A stretch of DNA of 32,382 nucleotides from positions 1 through 32,382 of the forward strand of contig VXOZ01000005.1 in NCBI GenBank assembly GCA_009839775.1. Reading direction: 5' to 3'. Numbering within the stretch: the stretch's first letter is position 1; every line of letters begins with the position of its first letter. Origin of the DNA: Chloroflexota bacterium. Lineage in GTDB: Bacteria; Chloroflexota; UBA11872; VXOZ01. The notes under the pieces are model-generated. The model saw only the letters and a program-made list of their open reading frames with translations, was not told the origin of the DNA and made no database searches. Below, piece after piece: positions 1-28,331 of this stretch. A program made the position numbers and the translations under genes.

Positions 1-202
1 TTCAACTATCTCGTCCCTGCCCCCCCCCGCCCCCCCCCTCACACCCCCCCCCCGCGGGGGTGGGGGGGGGGGCCTCCGCCGCGGCGGCCTTTTTTTGCCC
101 CCCCCCCCCACGGCGCATTGCCGAGTGTTTGGAGAGAAACACTGCGTTTTGATTGCGGCTGGAATAAGATGCCGTCTTTGGTGTAAGCTTACTAAGTGAT
201 TC

Positions 203-534: not shown

Positions 535-687
535 TTAAACAACTGGCATAAGCTTTGTGCCAGCGATCCTTGAAATCGTAACGATCTGCTTCAATCGGCT
601 TCTTCTTGAGGCCGTATTGGAGTTGATTACCCTGCAAATCGGTACTTACATACCGCACCGACAAACACCTAAATGAAGGAGAAGAGA

Positions 688-1011
688 ATGGAACTGCATC
701 TTTTGCGTTCATTCTTGGGGTACTGGAAGGTCATTGCTGGCCGGCTCAAGCCTTACGGCCGTTGCCTGCTGTTGAGCGTCGTTTTCGGCCTGATCCTGCT
801 CGCGATGATAATCGTCAGCGCGATTCTGGTAGTCAGCGCTTTGGCAAACGGAGTCAGCTTGCTGATCCTGCCGGTCATCCTGCTCTTCCTCTCCGCCTGC
901 TACCGCGTGGTAAATCAATTTATCAAGCTGAGCGACTGCGCTGAGGAGGACCTGACCGACAAAATACCCCGACTGACCGAACAGGCAGCCCCGGCTGCCA
1001 TCCGACACTAG
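688..1011 (+). CDS. Small hypothetical membrane protein (two or more TM helices)
   Basis: ORF 673..1011 in the track. I prefer the second ATG at 688 because AAGGAG lies 6 nt upstream of it. The core is long and hydrophobic (LLLSVVFGLILLAMIIVSAILVV..., LLILPVILLFLSA). Confidence 0.6.
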   Translation: MELHLLRSFLGYWKVIAGRLKPYGRCLLLSVVFGLILLAMIIVSAILVVSALANGVSLLILPVILLFLSACYRVVNQFIKLSDCAEEDLTDKIPRLTEQAAPAAIRH

Positions 1012-1060
1012 GAGGTGTCCCATCTGCTGCGGATCGGTGACCGGACCGCAGGGTTAGGCT

Positions 1061-1086
1061 CCGGCGAAGCGATTCGCCGGGGTTTG
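1061..1086 (+). terminator. Hairpin CCGGCGAA-GCGA-TTCGCCGG followed by GGTTTG, a possible terminator
   Basis: Perfect 8-bp stem with a 4-nt loop, about 50 nt after the stop at 1011. The T tract is weak. Confidence 0.4.
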
Positions 1087-1176
1087 ACCAGATTGTTCTG
1101 GAGCAGGTCGTCACGGTTTCAAATTCAAAACGAGACTCACAAGCAAGGAGCCAGCCGAAGTTGAAATCTGAAAGTT

Positions 1177-1510: not shown

Positions 1511-1598
1511 TTGCCATATTTAAGTATAAATGTTATAGTATAAATACCGCACTTTGACAATAGAAGCTACGGTGATTCATTCCACGCCGGGATGAATC
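1511..1598 (+). promoter_or_regulatory. Promoter plus conserved 5' leader module, copy A
   Basis: TTGCCA (1511-1516), a 17-nt spacer ending in TGT, and TATAGT (1534-1539). The transcribed block ...GCACTTTGACAATAGAAGCTACGGTGATTCATTC follows, with hairpin GATTCAT/ATGAATC at 1574-1598. Positions 1527-1582 match 2971-3026 at 47 of 56 positions by manual alignment. Confidence 0.6.
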
Positions 1599-1644
1599 TC
1601 AACCAGGCGGCTGACCGCCGCCACATCACCCAAGGATAGAAGCG

Positions 1645-1932
1645 ATGTCCGATGATATCACAGCGAGGCTGGCGGTGCTGGAAGCGAAAAACGAGGCCTC
1701 GGCTAAAGGAATCCATTTCCTGCTTGCGGCGATCTCGACGGCAGTCTTCTTTTGCGCCGGGGCTATCTCGGTTCAATATGGCCTGAATGCCGTACTCCAA
1801 GTGGTAGCTGCCTCCGCATTCTGCTTCGCGCTGTTGTTCACCCCTGTCAATCTGGCGCTCTATGTCGCCGCGAGCATGAAAAGAGCCCGCACGCTTGAAG
1901 CGAGCAAGCCGGTCGCAGAACCGCGGGGCTGA
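1645..1932 (+). CDS. Small hypothetical membrane protein (95 aa, 2 TM)
   Basis: AAGGA lies 8 nt upstream of the ATG. A short N-terminal amphipathic segment (ARLAVLEAKNE) is followed by two hydrophobic helices. Confidence 0.6.
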   Translation: MSDDITARLAVLEAKNEASAKGIHFLLAAISTAVFFCAGAISVQYGLNAVLQVVAASAFCFALLFTPVNLALYVAASMKRARTLEASKPVAEPRG

Positions 1933-2030
1933 GGTGAGCGGAACCCGCCTGGAAAAGACCCGGACATCTCAAACTGTCCGGGTTGATTCCTGGAATAAAT
2001 CACCGTGTTTTCTATATTTCTCTATACTAC

Positions 2031-2105
2031 TGGAGCCGACGACGAGACTTGAACTCGTGACCCCATCCTTACCATGGATGTGCTCTACCGCTGAGCTACG
2101 TCGGC
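2031..2105 (-). tRNA. tRNA-Thr (anticodon GGT), copy 1
   Basis: The reverse complement folds as acceptor GCCGACG/CGTCGGC, D arm GCTC-AGCGGTA-GAGC, anticodon stem CATCC/GGATG with loop ATGGTAA (GGT), and T arm ACGAG-TTCAAGT-CTCGT, then T and CCA. It is identical over 75 nt to 3598-3672. Confidence 0.9.
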
Positions 2106-2382
2106 GCAATTTCAAGAATACCATACAAACCGACGGCACGATTCCAGATACCCGCTGACGGAGCAAGCGGGCTTCCCGCATAGGGTCGCTTTCAGAGGAG
2201 GGCAGTACTAAGAATTACTGCAATCCCTTCAAAGCGGCTTTTGTAATTACAAAATATTCAAGTTTGTCGGCAGCGAGTCCTCCGGAGCGAAGCAAAAGCT
2301 TCAAACTCCGGAAAGACTCGCCGCGTCCGCCGGTTTTATCGGACTGAGGAGGGGGTATCCGATCTCGCCCCGGCCGGGGCTT

Positions 2383-2847
2383 CTAGCTGAAGTTGACCAG
2401 CGCGATCCAGGCTGCGGCCAGATGGTCGACCGCCCGGAACATGCTGTTCGCTTCCGAGCTGACGTTGTCGGCCGCCGGATCCGCGCGGTCAACGATGGAC
2501 CTCGCGCAACCCAGCTCGAACTCGGCACGCGTCAGCGCGGGGCTGTTCGCCTCCAGGTTGGTGCTGGAGCCGATTCGCTCCGAAACGCGGTCGCCGACGG
2601 TCTGGCAGAGGCCTGCAATGTCTGCCCTGACCTCCGCCAACTCGTGGCAACCCGAATGCGGTGCGCCGGCTGCTGCCTGCAGCCTTTCTCTGGATTGATC
2701 CAGAATTGACCTCGTCTCTCTGAAGGGGATGCACGGAATAACCGCGCCCCCTTCTGCGATAAAAGACAATGCCTTCTCCTCTCTATCACAGAACGGATGC
2801 CATCGAACTGAAACAGCCGATATCTCCTCTGGATTTTCAACGGGCAT
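2383..2847 (-). CDS. Hypothetical protein (154 aa)
   Basis: A minus-strand TGTTATAAT extended -10 lies at 2880-2888, with GAGGAG in the short leader. It is the only ORF here with promoter support; several overlapping ORFs on both strands look like GC-rich shadows. Confidence 0.5.
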   Translation of the reverse strand: MPVENPEEISAVSVRWHPFCDREEKALSFIAEGGAVIPCIPFRETRSILDQSRERLQAAAGAPHSGCHELAEVRADIAGLCQTVGDRVSERIGSSTNLEANSPALTRAEFELGCARSIVDRADPAADNVSSEANSMFRAVDHLAAAWIALVNFS

Positions 2848-2955
2848 ATCCGAGAATCGCTCCTCGGATACTGGTATATATTATAACACTTTAGCTTATT
2901 ATTGTAAATAATCTCGGCCATATTGTGCCATTAAGCGCGGCGCAACTCCTCTATA

Positions 2956-3035
2956 TTTGCTTTTTAGGCATAAATGTTATAATATAAACATTGCTCTTTG
3001 ACAACTGAAGATACGGCGATTCATTCAATGAATCG
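2956..3035 (+). promoter_or_regulatory. Promoter plus conserved 5' leader module, copy B
   Basis: TTTGCT (2956-2961), a 16-nt spacer ending in TGT, and TATAAT (2978-2983). The conserved block ...GCTCTTTGACAACTGAAGATACGGCGATTCATTC follows, with hairpin CGATTCA/TGAATCG at 3017-3035. Confidence 0.6.
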
Positions 3036-3111
3036 TACCGGGTCGACCGACTCGGATACTGTCACCCACATATCGCGGCTCGAAGCTGGCCGTTACAAAG
3101 GAGAAAAACCC

Positions 3112-3516
3112 ATGGCTGATAAACCAATCAACGCCGTTGGCGGCAAGGTCGACAAGGGGACTATGGGGCTTCTGTACCCTCTGCCAGTCCTGCTTGTGCT
3201 CATTGCGTGGATGCCATTCGAGAAGCTCGTCTTCAACGAAAACTACTTGGCGTCGTTTGCGGCGGGGTACGCTGTCACCTTGGCGGTGATTGCCATTGCC
3301 TACGAGGTGCTCAGGCGGAAATTCGTCGGCATGGACACCCTCAGCTTCCTGATCGTTCCGGCATTCGGAGCGGCGGGGGCTGCCGGCAACGCGTTCGTTG
3401 CGACAGAAAACTCAGGTAATTTCGCGGCCACCTACGTAGTGGTTGCGAACGCGGGGTTTTTCACGGTCGCAACCATCGTCGCGATCAATTGGGCGGTTAT
3501 CACAAGACTCCGTTGA
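3112..3516 (+). CDS. Hypothetical integral membrane protein (134 aa, about 4 TM)
   Basis: The ATG at 3112 is preceded by AAAGGAGAAAAACCC. The track ORF begins at 2998 with a TTG inside the conserved leader, which I reject. The sequence is very hydrophobic and rich in Ala, Gly and Val. Confidence 0.65.
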   Translation: MADKPINAVGGKVDKGTMGLLYPLPVLLVLIAWMPFEKLVFNENYLASFAAGYAVTLAVIAIAYEVLRRKFVGMDTLSFLIVPAFGAAGAAGNAFVATENSGNFAATYVVVANAGFFTVATIVAINWAVITRLR

Positions 3517-3597
3517 GTCGACGACCCGGTGGCTCCGGTAGCTTTTAGCTGCCGGGGCACACCCCGGAATCAATCGCCGTGTTTTTACATTTTCTTC

Positions 3598-3672
3598 TGG
3601 AGCCGACGACGAGACTTGAACTCGTGACCCCATCCTTACCATGGATGTGCTCTACCGCTGAGCTACGTCGGC
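3598..3672 (-). tRNA. tRNA-Thr (anticodon GGT), copy 2
   Basis: Identical over 75 nt to 2031-2105, with the same fold. The flanking hairpin and pre-tRNA flank are also related to those of copy 1. Confidence 0.9.
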
Positions 3673-3934
3673 CCAGTTTACAGGATATCATAATAACACC
3701 GGCGAGCTGCGTGTCGCGGCGCCGGACAACCTGGCCGCCCCGATGCCGCATGAATTATAAATATAAGATCTTACCGGACAGGAGCGCGGGACGGGTTTCT
3801 TTTCGGATTATACGGCAGGCCCAATCGGCGGATAATTACGTTTTCATGAATTTATACCACAACCAGCACTAACGACCGGGGCCCCTGCGGCTGCGAGAAG
3901 AAATGAATCCTCCCGCAACCGCGGGGCATCGGCC

Positions 3935-4759
3935 TCAGTTGGCCTCGGTCGGCCTCAGAATCGGAAAATCGAAAAGCTCGTCAACGGCGGCGAATACCCT
4001 CTCAATAACTTCGCCCGTTACTTCGTCGGAATGTTTGACGCCGGAGTCGGCCTCGCGCAACAGCTCATCGTACTCCGTCAGAGCCCGGTTGAGTTCTTCT
4101 ACCAACTCCGAGTCGTCGTCAGCCAGCTGAAAAGCCGCCAAATTAGTCCGGCCATTCGGCAAGAATCGGTTTCGCGATTCATACCCCTCGGCCAGCCTGT
4201 TGATGGCTTCGGTCACTTGCTCGGTGCCGGCCGGCGAGTCCGTATGGAAGGCGAAGATTGAGAGCGACTCATTGGAGCTGAGATCGGCTATGATCACGGT
4301 TGCCTCGGTCACGGCATGGTATTCGCAGCCACCACCTCCTTGGCAGGGCTGGTAGTTGAGCGAAACCACTAAGCAACGGTCGGCTTGCTGGCTGATTGTG
4401 CAGTACCCGTCGGCTGCCGCCAAATCTGCGGTTATATTTTCGACATAGGCGTCAGTTTCGGAGAATACCGTCGGCTGCCTAGCTACTTCGTCTAGGGGCG
4501 TCATGGAGAAGTAAACGGGGTGTTGAGGCAATACGTCACGCAGAAGAGCCCAACGCTGTTCCCGACTCAAAAGCCGGCCGTCGTAAGCCGCCTCATTGGC
4601 GATTACGACGCTGAACGCGCCCGGTTTGTCGAACCCAATAACTCCCGCCTCCCATTCTGGTCGGTCTTCGCTACCGCTGCAGGCGGTGCTGGCAATCAGC
4701 AAGATCGCCAACAATAGGCCGACGCCCGGATGCTTGAGTTGCGGAAAAAGACGAGGCAT
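3935..4759 (-). CDS. Putative secreted lipoprotein, function unknown
   Basis: The ATG at 4759 is preceded by AAAGGAGAGG. The N-terminus MPRLFPQLKHPGVGLLLAILLIASTAC has a signal peptide and a lipobox-like STAC. The track ORF extends to 4828 without an RBS. Confidence 0.65.
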   Translation of the reverse strand: MPRLFPQLKHPGVGLLLAILLIASTACSGSEDRPEWEAGVIGFDKPGAFSVVIANEAAYDGRLLSREQRWALLRDVLPQHPVYFSMTPLDEVARQPTVFSETDAYVENITADLAAADGYCTISQQADRCLVVSLNYQPCQGGGGCEYHAVTEATVIIADLSSNESLSIFAFHTDSPAGTEQVTEAINRLAEGYESRNRFLPNGRTNLAAFQLADDDSELVEELNRALTEYDELLREADSGVKHSDEVTGEVIERVFAAVDELFDFPILRPTEAN

Positions 4760-4905
4760 CGGCCTCTCCTTTCTATGCTGGTTGTGGCTTGTAAAGTTAC
4801 AGCCGCGATTCTGACTGCCGGCACTCATTGTAGCCGGACAGATCGGAAAAGCAGACTATCTCTTTACTGTATAATATTTATACATCTAGCGCAAGCGACG
4901 CATCC

Positions 4906-4975
4906 TTGCCCGTTAAAAGCATTGGTTATATAATATAGGTATCGCACCTTGAAAATACGGCGGTTTGTTTCAAAT
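4906..4975 (+). promoter_or_regulatory. Promoter plus 5' leader module, copy C (more diverged)
   Basis: TTGCCC (4906-4911), a 17-nt spacer and TATAAT (4929-4934). This is followed by ...GCACCTTGAAAATACGGCGGTTTG..., which keeps the GCxCxTTGAxAA and TACGGxG blocks of copies A and B. Confidence 0.5.
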
Positions 4976-5033
4976 CGAGACAGGCTAAAACACCGAGCGG
5001 CTGCCTGCTGCTCCAGACCGAAAAAGGAACAAC

Positions 5034-5282
5034 ATGTCTTTTAACGAGGACGAGAGGATTGCGCGCTTGGAAAAAGCGATGGACGAAGCCTGGAAGCGCT
5101 TGAGTCGGTCCACGACGTTTTTAGCGCTTGCCGTCATCTTCGGCTGCGTTGCCGTCGTCTTCGGCGGCGCCAACCTCCCGGGCATAGCCTCGGGCTTTGC
5201 CATAGGGGTTTGGACCTTAAATTTATCCGGCCGTTGGCGGGAATACCGTTCCGCTGAACAAAAATTCCTCGAGCGCCCGTGA
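5034..5282 (+). CDS. Small hypothetical membrane protein (82 aa, 2 TM)
   Basis: AAAGGAA lies upstream of the ATG. The layout matches 1645..1932: a short N-terminal helix (ARLEKAMDEAW) and then two hydrophobic helices. Confidence 0.6.
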   Translation: MSFNEDERIARLEKAMDEAWKRLSRSTTFLALAVIFGCVAVVFGGANLPGIASGFAIGVWTLNLSGRWREYRSAEQKFLERP

Positions 5283-5527
5283 CGGCGCTGGCAGCAGCTT
5301 CTCGGATTGGCTCGGCCGGTTTTAATCGGCCGGGCTGAATCCTTGAAACCAACCGCCGTATTTTTATCCGCAAACCAAGGCGACTGGCTGGAGCGCAAAG
5401 CCGCTCTTCTGTTCCTCAGGTAATGCGCCGAGCAGTCTTAGAATTTGCGTCAATTTGCCGCCGCCCCTTAAACTGGCAGCTCTTTTGTGATATGCTTATC
5501 AGGGTTGATTCTAAAATATTTCAGACC

Positions 5528-5746
5528 ATGGCCAAGAAAAGCAAGAAGAAAGCCAAGAACAAGCGCTCGTTGGTGGCGCTGGTCAGCACCGTTACGGGCC
5601 ATCGCTACGTGATCAAGAAGAACAGCACCAATACGCCCGACAAGCTGGAGCGGCGCAAGTATGACCCTTTGATCCGCAAAACGGTCGTCTACAGGGAAAC
5701 CGCCAAGAATCTGGGCCGCAACGAGGTCAAGCCGCGAAAGAAGTAA
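5528..5746 (+). CDS. rpmG: 50S ribosomal protein L33
   Basis: MAKKSKKK...LVSTVTGHRYVIKKNSTNTPDKLERRKYDPLIRKTVVYRE matches the L33 core pattern (xKNxxNTPxxLExxKYxP...H.E). It is the non-Cys (zinc-less) type. I use the internal ATG at 5528 rather than the track start at 5423. Confidence 0.85.
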   Translation: MAKKSKKKAKNKRSLVALVSTVTGHRYVIKKNSTNTPDKLERRKYDPLIRKTVVYRETAKNLGRNEVKPRKK

Positions 5747-5813
5747 TTTTAACTATATCCAAAAAGGCTTCCGTGCCTTATACTGATAACACTTAAGACA
5801 ACTTAACCGATAG

Positions 5814-6137
5814 ATGAGCACCCAGACCGCCAATACCCAGAAAATCAGGATCAGGCTGAAAGCCTACGACTACAAGGTGATAGACCAGTCCGCCAAACAG
5901 ATCGTCAACACGGCGCTCAGGACCGGCGCGTCCGTCAACGGCCCCGTGCCGCTGCCGACCAAGCGGACCGTTTACACTGTCGTCAAAAGCCCGCACGTTT
6001 ATAAAAAAGGCCGGGAACAGTTCGAGATGCGCATCCACAAACGCCTGGTGGACATCATCAACCCCACCGCCCAGACGATAGACAACCTGACCCACCTCTC
6101 GTTGCCGGCGGGCTGCGATATAGAGATGAAAATGTAA
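5814..6137 (+). CDS. rpsJ: 30S ribosomal protein S10
   Basis: [73 protein letters not shown] is a clear full-length S10 signature. Confidence 0.95.
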
Positions 6138-6140
6138 AAA

Positions 6141-6164
6141 CCGACTCCAAGAGCCGGTTTTTTT
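6141..6164 (+). terminator. Rho-independent terminator after rpsJ
   Basis: Stem CCGACTC/GAGCCGG with one mismatch and loop CAA, followed by T7, starting 4 nt after the rpsJ stop. Confidence 0.8.
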
Positions 6165-6236
6165 AACGCTTGCGGCGGTCAGCCGTTCGTACTGGCAAAC
6201 CCCGTTCCCGGCAAAGGGAACGGGGCGAGCCGGGGA

Positions 6237-6563
6237 TCAGATGCGGCAACGCACAGGTCTGGTCAAAACCTCGCGGGCCCGCACAAGGTAGAAGGGCTCC
6301 AGGGACCGGATCGCCATGGCCGTGTCGCTGATGTCGTTTTTCACGTCATCGCGACTGGTACCTGCCGGCGGGTCTGCGACTTGCCGGCGCAACCGCCTGT
6401 AGCGCTTACGAGCCAGCCGGCGCAACCAGAAACGGTTGCGCCTGATAGCGAGGCAGGCCTTGGTGTCCGATCCGGATATGACAGCGTGCATGAGGTGCTC
6501 GAACCGCTTGGTCAGCCGTTTGCCGGCCGTAATCGCTTCCAGCATGTTCAACTCCCTGCTCAT
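6237..6563 (-). CDS. Hypothetical basic protein (108 aa, Arg-rich)
   Basis: The ORF has GAAAGGAA upstream of the ATG. A minus-strand TGTTATAAT at 6758-6766 implies a leader of about 190 nt. No recognisable domain. Confidence 0.5.
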   Translation of the reverse strand: MSRELNMLEAITAGKRLTKRFEHLMHAVISGSDTKACLAIRRNRFWLRRLARKRYRRLRRQVADPPAGTSRDDVKNDISDTAMAIRSLEPFYLVRAREVLTRPVRCRI

Positions 6564-6854
6564 CGGGTTCCTTTCTCCGAACGCGCCCTCCTTTTGAGGA
6601 TCGCCTCCTGTCCTGCAACCCAGAACAGAAGGCGGACCCTCAAGTTATAAATTCCCGGCTTAGTTTGCTACTACTCCCGCGCCTATGCGCCACAGGGGAA
6701 GACAGCAAACCGCCGCAAGTGTTAAAGATCAACGCCCCTCGGGGAGGGGGGTTTGCATATTATAACACCTTTAGCAGAATAAATCCACGCTGCCTTTGAC
6801 AAATAAGCATAATCATGATAATCTTGGAAGCTATATTATATCCTTATTCAACGT

Positions 6855-7532
6855 ATGGAAAGGTTAGACAGCCGAACGAAACAAGAAACCGGCGAAGGGA
6901 TGCTTGAGCGCCTGCGGAAGGGTTCGCTGGAGCACCAGCTGGTGGCCAGCTTGGTCGACAGCCTGGCGAATGCCGACCAAGCCGCCGCCCATGCTTTTGC
7001 TTGCCAAAAATTACGCGAATCGACTAGCAGGATGATAGAGAGGTGCCGAGAAGACAAAGGGGGCGGATGGCTCAGTCATTCTTATTACTTGCCAATCTAC
7101 AAATTTTACCGATCATTTTATGAAAGCTGCAGCCAAGCGGGCTGCCTGCATCTGGATACGGATAACTGCCTGAGGGCGGGCCGCCGGGAGATTGATTTCA
7201 ATCCGAGCCAGAAATTTGACATGTTGGTAGAGGGTATCGGCGGTAACGAGGCGGATTTGCCGTTGACCGAACCGGTTTTCATGATCGAATACCAAGAAGT
7301 CAGGAGCTTGTTGCTGACGGAAGAAGAACAGCCGCGTAAAGCCCGGCTGGTTAAAGAGTACAGAATGACCGCCGCGGCAATCAAAGAATTCATTGATAAC
7401 GACCGAATAAACTCGGCTGCCGAGAAGGGGTTTATTTTTCAACATTACAAGCAGCCGCTGGAGCAACTGGCGGAAACCTGCCTTGACCTCGCCCTGAGCA
7501 TGGAGTACGCCCACCACCATCTTGCCGACTGA
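6855..7532 (+). CDS. Hypothetical protein (225 aa)
   Basis: Long ORF downstream of TTGACA (about 6808) with a -10 in TGATAAT/TAATCT. No clear RBS, so the start is uncertain. The antisense ORF 7113..7604 looks like a shadow. Confidence 0.55.
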   Translation: MERLDSRTKQETGEGMLERLRKGSLEHQLVASLVDSLANADQAAAHAFACQKLRESTSRMIERCREDKGGGWLSHSYYLPIYKFYRSFYESCSQAGCLHLDTDNCLRAGRREIDFNPSQKFDMLVEGIGGNEADLPLTEPVFMIEYQEVRSLLLTEEEQPRKARLVKEYRMTAAAIKEFIDNDRINSAAEKGFIFQHYKQPLEQLAETCLDLALSMEYAHHHLAD

Positions 7533-8158: not shown

Positions 8159-8343
8159 GTAGTCCTCACCACCTTCCCGGTGTCGTGGAGCCGATGCGGG
8201 TGACCGCTAGCTCAGATTGTTAAGGGTCGTCCTTCAGTTCTGGTCAAAGAACTGCGGAACTGCTTATATTATGACACATTATAGAGGTTTATACAAACAA
8301 AGGCCGCCGGGGTTGCATGCAAAATAACGCTTCTTCGCAAATA

Positions 8344-10151: not shown

Positions 10152-10156
10152 TATAT

Positions 10157-10888
10157 TCAAGCGTTGAAAACAAGCAGGTAGATAATCATGGCGGTTGCCA
10201 TTGCGGCCATTGCCCGCCGGACGAAGTTGTTGCCGCCCTTGACAGCCAATCTCGAGCCTATTTGAGCGCCTATCATGTTGGCAAGCAGCAGGGCGATCCC
10301 GAACCTGAAGTCTATCAAGCCGCTGAAGAGAAGCATGCCGATAGCCAGCAAGCTGCTCAAACCGTTGGCCAACAAAGCGGCGGCAACCGCCTGCAACGCT
10401 GTCAGCCCCCTGAAGTAAATCAAGGCCGAAACGGCCAGCAAGTTGTTACCGAAACCCCCGGCCGCGGCAAAACGGGCCGCGGAATAAACCCAAGGCCAAG
10501 CCCTCTTGGGGCGGCGTTCCGTAACCGGAGCCTCTTTTTTCCTTATGACAAACAGCAGGACGATGACCAGGCTGGCAATAATTAGCTTGGTAAGCAAATC
10601 TTCACTAACGCGGATAATCAAAAAAGTGCCCGCTGCGGTAGCTAGCAAATTAAGAACAACGATAGGCGGCAGGGCTCGCTTTTTAAACTGCTTCGCGCGG
10701 CGCAGGTTGCGTAAAGCCGGCGGATAGAAACCGGCGTCTCCGAAAATATGGGTCGCAACGGCGCTGTTGACGGGCAAGCCGATGTAAAGAAGAGCCGCTA
10801 GCTGGATGATGCCGGCTCCACCACCGGACATCGAACCCACCAGAGCGGCCAAGAAACCGGCCGCGGTAACAATCGCAATGTCCAGCAT
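10157..10888 (-). CDS. TauE/SafE (TSUP, DUF81) family anion exporter
   Basis: Polytopic membrane protein of 243 aa. It has the duplicated G-rich motifs typical of TSUP/TauE proteins (GSMSGGGAGIIQLAALLY..., AAGGFGNN...). A minus-strand TATAAT at 10896-10901 lies 7 nt from the ATG. Confidence 0.8.
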   Translation of the reverse strand: MLDIAIVTAAGFLAALVGSMSGGGAGIIQLAALLYIGLPVNSAVATHIFGDAGFYPPALRNLRRAKQFKKRALPPIVVLNLLATAAGTFLIIRVSEDLLTKLIIASLVIVLLFVIRKKEAPVTERRPKRAWPWVYSAARFAAAGGFGNNLLAVSALIYFRGLTALQAVAAALLANGLSSLLAIGMLLFSGLIDFRFGIALLLANMIGAQIGSRLAVKGGNNFVRRAMAAMATAMIIYLLVFNA

Positions 10889-27957: not shown

Positions 27958-28331
27958 CCTTCGGTCTTTAAAGTCTCGGCTGAAGAAGTTCGGCACCAGA
28001 GCGGTCAGGTTGGACTTGCCTGAGGTCGCGGCCATCTTGAACCATTACGTGGGGGTTATATCGCAAATAACATCACTCAATAACGTATAACCTCCGTTAT
28101 GAACGGAGCTAAAGACAATTCGGCGAAAAGAACGGCAGAGCTTAAAAAAGCAATGGCTATTGACGTGAAAAAAGACGCTCCGGAGTCCGCAGAGACTTGG
28201 TGGCGGCGACTGCGCAAACGCCTGAAATTCTTGCTCTGGTTCGGGCATTAGCAACCGAAGTGTTATTTGCGACATAACCCCATCGCCTTGCGGCTAGACT
28301 TACTGGCCGGTTTATATTATCATCGCCGCAT

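Follow-up and report, generated by a model that had tools for sequence, protein, structure and literature searches.

Inverted repeats with covarying arms, predicted to pair mRNA ends, bracket unrelated small membrane-protein genes on a Saccharibacteria contig

We analyzed positions 1–32382 of contig VXOZ01000005.1 (GCA_009839775.1), a stretch of 32,382 nucleotides referred to here as the window, in which inverted repeats bracket six genes or possible genes (units u0 to u5). Three of these units, u1, u2 and u3, belong to one repeat family (family A), which comprises six units from two species: the three in the window and a further three, ua, ub and uc, on L092, a 95.6-kb contig from another sample. 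L092 encodes an identical S10 protein, differs by a synonymous divergence (Ks) of approx. 0.4 at 75–87% DNA identity, and is a sister species. Its unit ua carries an ortholog of the first open reading frame (ORF1) followed by the sole L092 transfer RNA (tRNA) gene for Thr(GGT), ub carries an ORF2 ortholog without a tRNA, and uc holds a new 160-aa membrane ORF (ORFc) directly 5′ of rpmG. The family A features of the window are as follows (TM, transmembrane).

1511–1539, plus strand: u1 promoter, TTGCCA-17-TATAGT with TG; the transcript presumably starts near 1546
1560–1584, plus strand: u1 5′ arm, AUAGAAGCUACGGUGAUUCAUUCCA
1574–1598, plus strand: u1 local 5′ hairpin, GAUUCAUUCC / GGGAUGAAUC, a rival partner for the distal half of the 5′ arm
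1645–1932, plus strand: ORF1, 95 aa, two TM-like segments
1958–1981, plus strand: GC-rich hairpin just 5′ of the u1 3′ arm, with UCUUUUCC after it on the minus strand
1991–2015, plus strand: u1 3′ arm, UGGAAUAAAUCACCGUGUUUUCUAU, ending in a U-rich run
2031–2105, minus strand: tRNA-Thr(GGT), extra copy, whose 3′ trailer runs antisense to the 3′ arm of u1
2956–2983, plus strand: u2 promoter, TTGCTT/TTTGCT, short spacer, TGtTATAAT
3006–3026, plus strand: u2 5′ arm of the inverted repeat
3017–3035, plus strand: u2 local 5′ hairpin, CGAUUCAU / AUGAAUCG
3112–3516, plus strand: ORF2, 134 aa, about four TM-like segments
3567–3587, plus strand: u2 3′ arm, followed by a U-run
3598–3672, minus strand: tRNA-Thr(GGT), ancestral copy; this gene plus the 3′ arm matches the sole L092 copy at 94% identity
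4906–4934, plus strand: u3 promoter, TTGCCC-17-TATAAT
4950–4973, plus strand: u3 5′ arm of the inverted repeat
4961–4977, plus strand: u3 local hairpin, a predicted fold
5034–5282, plus strand: ORF3, 82 aa, membrane protein
5343–5366, plus strand: u3 3′ arm with U-run, directly 5′ of the rpmG promoter, no tRNA

A first-pass annotation of this region had described a promoter and leader shared by two segments with dissimilar small ORFs and identical tRNA genes, followed by a diverged third copy. A consensus promoter scan called the u1 and u3 promoters, but missed that of u2 (−10 box TGtTATAAT at 2975–2983) because of its spacer length. Ribosome-binding sites of the AAGGA/AAGGAG type precede ORF1, ORF2 and ORF3. 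The repeat search of the window found 83% identity over 64 nt between 1519–1582 and 2963–3026, confirming a shared leader that reaches well past the −10 box, and recovered the third, more diverged copy at 4929–4965, with the promoter called at 4906–4934. Both tRNA-Thr genes have the same anticodon and an equal Rfam score (ARAGORN, Rfam); the copies are identical, and the 104-nt blocks enclosing them are 91% identical, in agreement with the related flanks described earlier. The tRNAs were the sole Rfam matches even at E ≤ 1, and the units match no curated RNA family. ORF1 and ORF2 are indeed dissimilar: BLASTP gave no alignment, and hhalign a probability of 0.07%. The supposed likeness of ORF3 to ORF1 amounts to a weak N-terminal resemblance (28% over 71 aa, E = 0.07), and homology could not be demonstrated (hhalign aligned 14 N-terminal residues). 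Homology of the ORFs by plain duplication, one of the outcomes that the first-pass annotation had named as undoing its claim, was not demonstrable in the profile-profile comparison (hhalign). The tRNA transcript likely terminates at the u1 hairpin at 1958–1981, which UCUUUUCC follows on the minus strand.

The leader block makes up one half, the 5′ arm, of an inverted repeat, and the 3′ arm lies just past each ORF. The repeat search returned inverted repeats at 1560–1584/1991–2015, 3008–3026/3567–3585 and 4952–4973/5343–5364, which bracket ORF1, ORF2 and ORF3, respectively. Every arm sits between the promoter and the end of its own unit, with the 5′ arm about 60–90 nt upstream of the Shine-Dalgarno sequence. 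Each 3′ arm has a GC-rich hairpin immediately before it and a U-rich tract after it, and the convergent tRNA genes start 12–19 nt beyond the u1 and u2 3′ arms. Each of the six family A 3′ arms ends with a run of the CCGU(G/A)U(U/C)UUU type, and the 5′ arms begin A-rich. The family A helix spans 22–25 nt and consists of 17 bp, a conserved 1×1 mismatch and 5 bp. An RNA-aware inverted-repeat scan of the window (spacing 100–1500 nt, ten block-shuffles as background) gave six top matches with scores of 20, 18, 18, 18, 17 and 15, compared with shuffle maxima of 13–16; family A pairs score 15–20 on this scale. Complementarity between the two untranslated regions (UTRs) of the same gene therefore exceeds chance, as expected of end-paired mRNAs of the hbs and icaR type. 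An arm profile (nhmmer, and a 28-nt Infernal profile) found exactly six copies in the 2.7-Mb bin, all of them in this stretch. When the presumed transcripts of u0 to u5 were folded as a whole by minimum free energy, the 5′–3′ helix closed all six. Likewise, in an RNAduplex matrix of the arms only, the cognate pair was best in its row and column every time (−25.6 to −38 kcal/mol), even among the three cross-reacting family A units. A matrix of whole UTRs was uninformative owing to length and GC effects and was replaced by the arms-only matrix. The earlier idea of a cis-regulatory leader RNA consequently holds insofar as the leader is structured and covarying, but it is not self-contained, since its main partner is a 3′-UTR element 370–560 nt downstream.

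A tail of approx. 14 nt between the presumed start and the 5′ arm is also conserved in six of six units, as GCAC(U/C)UU(G/A)A(C/U/A)AA (window 1547–1559, 2991–3003 and 4942–4949; L092 4958–4971, 8349–8362 and 8969–8975). It holds a TTGACA-like hexamer and belongs to neither helix.

Covariation was assessed by joining the six 5′ arms to their own 3′ arms, aligning them, and comparing the result with 500 shuffles. Standard pairs occupied 94.7% of cells versus 87.6% in the shuffles (0/500), and changes on both sides were seen in 7 of 22 pairs (2/500 shuffles). When the partner was slid by 1–3 columns, pairing fell to 37–46%. RNAalifold independently returned the same helix with 21 pairs. Individual compensations can be read directly from the arms: ACGG[C]G/C[G]CCGU in u2 became ACGG[U]G/C[A]CCGU in its ortholog ub (C–G to U–A), and uc shows A[U]GG/CC[A]U and AUUAC/GUAAU. 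The position GAUU[C]AUU is unpaired in six of six helices. The covariation that the first-pass annotation had asked for in the leader is accordingly present, both in the six-unit alignment and in RNAalifold. Counting all helices on the presumed sense strand, 15 of the positions outside Watson-Crick pairing are G·U and 7 are A·C; restricted to the membrane-ORF units, the counts are 15 and 3.

The same 5′ arm has a second, local partner. In all six family A units its distal half pairs with the adjoining downstream sequence (−8 to −14 kcal/mol in single-sequence folds); this is the hairpin built on GATTCAT noticed earlier, which is predicted throughout. It forms in folds of transcripts cut before the 3′ arm, while in full-length folds the long-range helix displaced it in six of seven units tested; in ub, the local hairpin stayed alongside a partial long-range helix. 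The closing pair of the local hairpin changed from C–G to U–A between u2 and ub along with the 3′ arm, i.e., a three-way covariation. RNAalifold supported the local hairpin weakly, on an alignment that mixes two loop types; its support comes from the single-sequence folds and from compensatory changes visible in the u2/ub and u1/uc sequences. The predicted probability of an unpaired Shine-Dalgarno sequence, compared with and without the 3′ arm, stayed the same in five of seven units, rose slightly in u3 and fell slightly in uc. As this accessibility is independent of the 3′ arm, no translational effect is predicted. That the leader “controls” the small genes is a hypothesis.

Comparison with the sister species indicates that the bracketed genes have been exchanged between conserved flanks. 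The block comprising a 154-aa gene (minus strand), promoter and 5′ arm is 86% identical between window 2166–3026 and L092 4129–4994, and the block of 3′ arm, spacer, tRNA-Thr and its upstream flank is 94% identical between 3563–3698 and L092 5394–5528. The gene enclosed by these orthologous blocks is ORF2 in the window but the ORF1 ortholog in L092; the alignment stops with the final base of the 5′ arm and restarts where the 3′ arm begins. The u2 3′ module matches ua, which occupies the same site, at 90%, and ub, which carries the same cargo, at 68%; hence the arms stayed and the cargo changed. At the site adjacent to rpmG, the window has ORF3 and L092 the unrelated ORFc. Homologous recombination in the blocks appears to be the simplest mechanism of the swap, since they are the only homologous tracts. 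The second tRNA copy (2031–2105) belongs to the extra ORF1 unit, which L092 lacks together with any second tRNA-Thr(GGT). With the tRNA absent from three of six units (u3, ub, uc), it is not integral to the module. The cassette-like exchange suggested in the first-pass annotation is supported by the comparison with the sister genome. Searches with the Phage_integrase and Resolvase profiles found no tyrosine or serine recombinase on the contig. Between the tRNA and a 275-aa gene, L092 carries three copies of a TAGTCAATA(A/G)C(C/T)T(A/G)GAA... motif with reverse-strand ORF fragments (5560–5640, 6850–6990, 8262–8300); they look like insertion-sequence remnants, at a place where the sister genome has 1.7 kb of extra DNA.

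The cargo proteins themselves gave few hints. The family A ORFs, the u0 ORF and an ORF on a further relative (L099, see below) each have 1–4 TM-like segments. ORF1 and its L092 ortholog are 41–44% identical over the full length and 54% over the N-terminal 59 aa; the ORF2 orthologs are 56% identical. The Ka/Ks ratio (nonsynonymous to synonymous substitution rates) of the cargo is 0.57–0.78, compared with 0 for rpsJ and 0.02 for rpmG, and reading frames and lengths are retained in both species. No homolog of ORF1 was found among 5.8 billion proteins, no cargo ORF matched Pfam, and the ORF2 profile found only itself and one repeat protein among 1.8 billion representatives. The latter (P0123, 880 aa) contains eight stretches similar to ORF2 residues 65–113 (E = 5e-10), a likeness that may reflect a Gly/Ala-rich repeat instead of true homology.

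End-pairing stems in the window are not restricted to family A. Three further units have arms without any sequence relation to it.

570–1122, plus strand: u0, arms 570–593 and 1099–1122, around a 107-aa membrane ORF (688–1011), promoter 506–534
6160–6728, minus strand: u4, arms 6709–6728 (5′) and 6160–6179 (3′), around a 108-aa Arg-rich ORF (6563..6237)
28052–28281, plus strand (strand uncertain): u5, 21-nt arms 28052–28072 and 28261–28281, around a possible 50-aa ORF (28099–28251)

Among u0 orthologs, seven of eight arm substitutions keep or improve the pairing, mostly by U·G to U–A changes, which have this effect on the sense strand only. The u4 helix is retained with compensatory changes in the window, L092 and the relative L095. 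Compensatory upkeep of pairing, as expected of mRNAs of the hbs and icaR type, was found in family A, the u0 orthologs and u4. The u4 and u5 ORFs are non-membrane, yet are bracketed by the same kind of helix. A normal terminator lies 3′ of the u4 3′ arm, and the next ORF after u0 follows 55 nt downstream.

Several other sites in the window and in relatives resemble these units. Window 130–155 (TTGGAGAGAAACACTGCGTTTTGATT) is the 3′ arm of a further gene-bracketing helix whose remainder is cut off by the contig start; L092 has a complete counterpart pair (1145–1170/1965–1990) around a 154-aa ORF (1360–1824), followed by tRNA-Thr(CGT). Just past the tRNA-Thr(CGT) terminator of the window, positions 337–356 (AAAGCGTGACGGCCGGCTCC) are complementary to the u0 3′ arm at 1100–1119 (score 13–14) and may be a remnant or an alternative partner of that arm. 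In L099, a relative with 92% S10 identity, a TTGACA-17-TATAAT promoter heads the region 10152–10781, in which a 26-bp outer helix (10226–10251/10756–10781) and a 17-bp inner helix (about 10293–10311/10696–10713) enclose a two-TM ORF of 94 aa, and a hairpin immediately precedes the 3′ arm; in sequence, the outer arm is loosely family A-like (AAAAU...AUUCAUU). In L044 (CAYUUV010000008.1, a Saccharibacteria metagenome-assembled genome, MAG), a 47-nt imperfect inverted repeat (688–734/1320–1366) brackets rpsJ (989–1285). Gene bracketing as a general trait of Saccharibacteria was rejected: L044 and perhaps L067 were the only loci to stand out in 820 kb of S10 neighborhoods (80 other genomes), compared with two matches in shuffles. 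The other contigs of the bin are rich in palindromic REP-like (repetitive extragenic palindromic) repeats, and the bracketing rate there is not comparable.

The contig belongs to Saccharibacteria (Candidate Phyla Radiation, CPR) and is mis-binned into the MAG of another organism. We treat it as such because the closest match of its S10 protein is Candidatus Saccharibacteria, its GC content is 50% versus 59.6% for the bin, it is a tetranucleotide outlier within the bin, and the relatives of the bin are unlike it: the 40 genomes closest to the bin have only tRNA fragments in common with the unit, and the other 488 bin contigs belong to a genus with 3.5-Mb genomes. Close relatives were instead found by an S10 search of the 5.8-billion-protein collection. 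Profile searches found no family A arms in 80 S10 loci of other Saccharibacteria or in 5 + 23 whole GTDB Saccharibacteria genomes (the positive control worked), and family A is absent from relatives whose S10 is 89–93% identical. L095 has no family A unit between the homolog of the 154-aa gene and rpmG; three related genomes carry 0–3 units and one or two tRNA copies. The exact tRNA-Thr pattern had no match in the genome contigs searched, and a 31-nt part of it matched a single distant genome, which has no units. RNase III, RNase Y and RNase J (RNase, ribonuclease) are encoded in all five related Saccharibacteria genomes inspected. As to the neighborhood, the rpmG–rpsJ adjacency (window 5528–6137), with rpsJ split from the rest of the S10 operon, is common to all close relatives fetched (L092, L095–L101); in the more distant L091, tRNA-Thr(GGT) is co-directional with rpmG, and a different gene follows rpmG. 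Long C and G homopolymer runs at 20–115 may be an assembly-end artefact; the parallel scaffold L089 starts at 115. We found no report in the literature of end-paired mRNAs in Saccharibacteria or Patescibacteria, and a TRIC-seq preprint does not treat 5′/3′-UTR pairing.

Taken together, we consider it probable, with confidence somewhat above even, that the three small membrane-protein genes are monocistronic units whose arms close the mRNA by a 5′–3′ helix and thereby set the fate of the mRNA ends. Position suggests that both arms lie on one mRNA, as promoters precede the 5′ arms and U-runs or a terminator follow the 3′ arms. Each unit would consist of a strong sigma-70-type promoter, a 5′ tail of approx. 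14 nt, the 5′ arm, the local hairpin, a ribosome-binding site with the ORF, the GC-rich hairpin, the 3′ arm and a U-run. Before the 3′ arm is transcribed, the distal half of the 5′ arm would be held in the local hairpin; in the finished transcript, the arms would pair as a 22–25-bp helix, closing the mRNA into a panhandle, the two structures being mutually exclusive. Such a helix could shield the 5′ region and the 3′ end from RNase Y, RNase J or a 3′-exonuclease, or may present RNase III with a duplex of two turns; as related Saccharibacteria encode RNase III, Y and J, hbs-like shielding as well as an icaR- or rRNA-like RNase III site are feasible. The GC core and the U's may in addition aid 3′-end formation ahead of the convergent tRNA gene or rpmG. 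The most likely function would hence be in mRNA stability, processing or as a 3′-end clamp. In evolution, selection would maintain the paralogous promoter/5′-arm and 3′-arm blocks while the cargo ORFs diverge rapidly, and recombination in the arm blocks would have swapped cargo between sites and duplicated one unit with its tRNA-Thr(GGT). Some points weigh against this interpretation. Transcript starts and ends are predictions, as is the presence of the 3′ arm on the mRNA; in u0 and u1, some transcripts could stop ahead of this arm, at a GC hairpin that has a weak U-tail. The covariation events are not independent, because the six units are paralogs from only two genomes. The few non-Watson-Crick positions of u4 and u5 are A·C on the presumed sense strand, the predicted Shine-Dalgarno accessibility with and without the 3′ arm is essentially equal in seven units, and a constraint on complementarity at the DNA level would also fit the sequence evidence.

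The last point leads to the view that the repeats are DNA recombination sites, i.e., ends of inverton-, shufflon- or integron-like cassettes, with complementarity kept by recombination or gene conversion and RNA pairing incidental. Orthologous flanks do enclose different cargo, with homology breaking off at the arms, the three related genomes vary greatly in this region, and the arm lengths are typical of inverton repeats. However, the promoters lie outside the repeats, unit orientation is constant in three assemblies and the sister species, and no tyrosine or serine recombinase is encoded on the contig; a single site-specific recombinase would moreover not serve the at least four unrelated arm sequences in the 32-kb window. 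The 3′ arm was kept to the site rather than to the cargo, the same mismatch is unpaired in six of six helices (the opposite of homogenization), G·U exceeds A·C on the sense strand, and the local hairpin covaries with the arm. We therefore judge this explanation unlikely. The plainest account, a segmental duplication in which promoter and tRNA flank were copied together and complementarity arose by chance, draws on the 81–91% identity of the u1 and u2 blocks and on the identical tRNA copies. It is contradicted by the RNA-aware scan, in which complementarity is far above shuffles, by the covariation and by the compensation in u0 orthologs; complementarity is also present in tRNA-less units and between unrelated arm sequences. 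We regard it as highly improbable.

Two further alternatives accept pairing of the RNA, but assign it another role. In a lock like that of the hok type I toxin, the small membrane proteins would be toxic and the end-paired mRNA inert until 3′ trimming, or an antisense RNA (the tRNA-Thr 3′ trailer mimicking the 5′ arm), frees the 5′ arm and starts translation. The three-element layout equals the hok tac/fbi pairing plus metastable hairpin (PMC9841398), every family A cargo ORF is hydrophobic, and in u1, u2 and ua the tRNA trailer contains the 3′ arm's reverse complement. On the other hand, the ORFs are 82–160 aa long with 1–4 TM segments instead of the usual single-TM toxins below 60 aa, their Ka/Ks is 0.6–0.8, no antisense promoter was found inside any unit, three of six units have no tRNA, the helix leaves the predicted Shine-Dalgarno accessibility unchanged, and the u4 and u5 helices surround non-membrane ORFs. 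We give this lock little credence. A similarly low probability is assigned to a long-range intrinsic terminator or insulator, in which the GC core (ACGGYG/CRCCGU) and the U-run would end transcription and protect the convergent tRNA or the rpmG–rpsJ operon, the mirrored A-run/U-run acting likewise on antisense transcription. This would suit the U-rich ends of six of six 3′ arms and the A-rich starts of the 5′ arms, the plus-strand local GC hairpins without proper U-tails, and the position of the units next to a convergent tRNA or a ribosomal-protein operon. Nevertheless, the U-run is paired with the A-run inside the helix, u4 has a normal terminator after its 3′ arm, in u0 the next ORF follows at 55 nt, and a terminator stem that closes across 400–600 nt has no precedent known to us.

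If the arms indeed pair on the mRNA, the module would explain why non-coding flanks are better conserved than the proteins they enclose. It would represent a lineage-typical control of mRNA ends in genomes with reduced regulatory repertoires, provide a signature for annotation (a gene-bracketing helix of at least 18 nt within UTRs), and lend itself to synthetic constructs as a compact, natural element for stability and insulation. Within 32 kb, at least six genes bear closing stems of their own, and the sister genome has a different gene within the same flanks. More tentatively, and with clearly less confidence, a portable “UTR clamp” may package small accessory genes in this Saccharibacteria lineage, perhaps in the CPR, with arms that double as homology handles and thus form an integrase-free cassette system defined by RNA structure.

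Compared with known systems, the units share with integron cassettes (attC) and invertons that cargo changes between conserved flanks and that inverted repeats bound the cargo. Here, in contrast, the arms stay with the site, promoters are outside the repeats and the units point the same way in the assemblies compared (three of this organism, and the sister contig), with no Resolvase match on the contig; neither an IntI-type recombinase with attC sites moving with the cargo nor any other integrase or invertase was found on the contig. In the processing stems of ribosomal RNA (rRNA) operons, which are substrates of RNase III, complements bracket a functional RNA with a helix of at least 20 bp over hundreds of nucleotides, whereas protein-coding ORFs are bracketed here and cleavage is putative. 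Among bacterial mRNAs, long-range 5′/3′-UTR pairing has been described for a few individual genes (hok, hbs, icaR); here it appears to recur as a covarying module, reused around several unrelated orphan genes in an episymbiont that is uncultured and ultra-small. In hok, a type I toxin-antitoxin system, the tac/fbi stem and a metastable 5′ hairpin are backed by covariation (PMC9841398). The present units likewise have a 5′ element that can pair with either an adjacent complement or a 3′-end element, a hydrophobic protein, and covariation; the fold-back and the alternative local pairing rest on prediction and covariation. Their helix is 22–25 bp long, non-membrane ORFs are also bracketed, and no Shine-Dalgarno sequestration is predicted; ORFs of 82–160 aa with 1–4 TM-like segments are not the small peptides (typically below 60 aa) of such systems, and a consensus scan found no minus-strand promoter-like site inside the units. 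The analogy to hok would thus hold for the architecture and fail on size, antisense RNA and Shine-Dalgarno masking. In icaR of Staphylococcus aureus, pairing between the 3′- and 5′-UTRs masks the Shine-Dalgarno sequence and prevents initiation (Ruiz de los Mozos et al., 2013, PMC3868564), while the arm is located approx. 60–90 nt 5′ of it here and masking is not predicted. In hbs of Bacillus subtilis, a 14-bp 5′/3′-UTR helix of a single gene modulates ribonuclease access (Braun, Durand & Condon, 2017, PMC5737220). The present module, known from sequence alone, differs in its 22–25-bp helix and in being a paralogous, reusable element before different ORFs, but resembles hbs in its predicted long-range 5′-UTR/3′-UTR helix in a short, presumably monocistronic mRNA and in an RNase Y/RNase J-type host.

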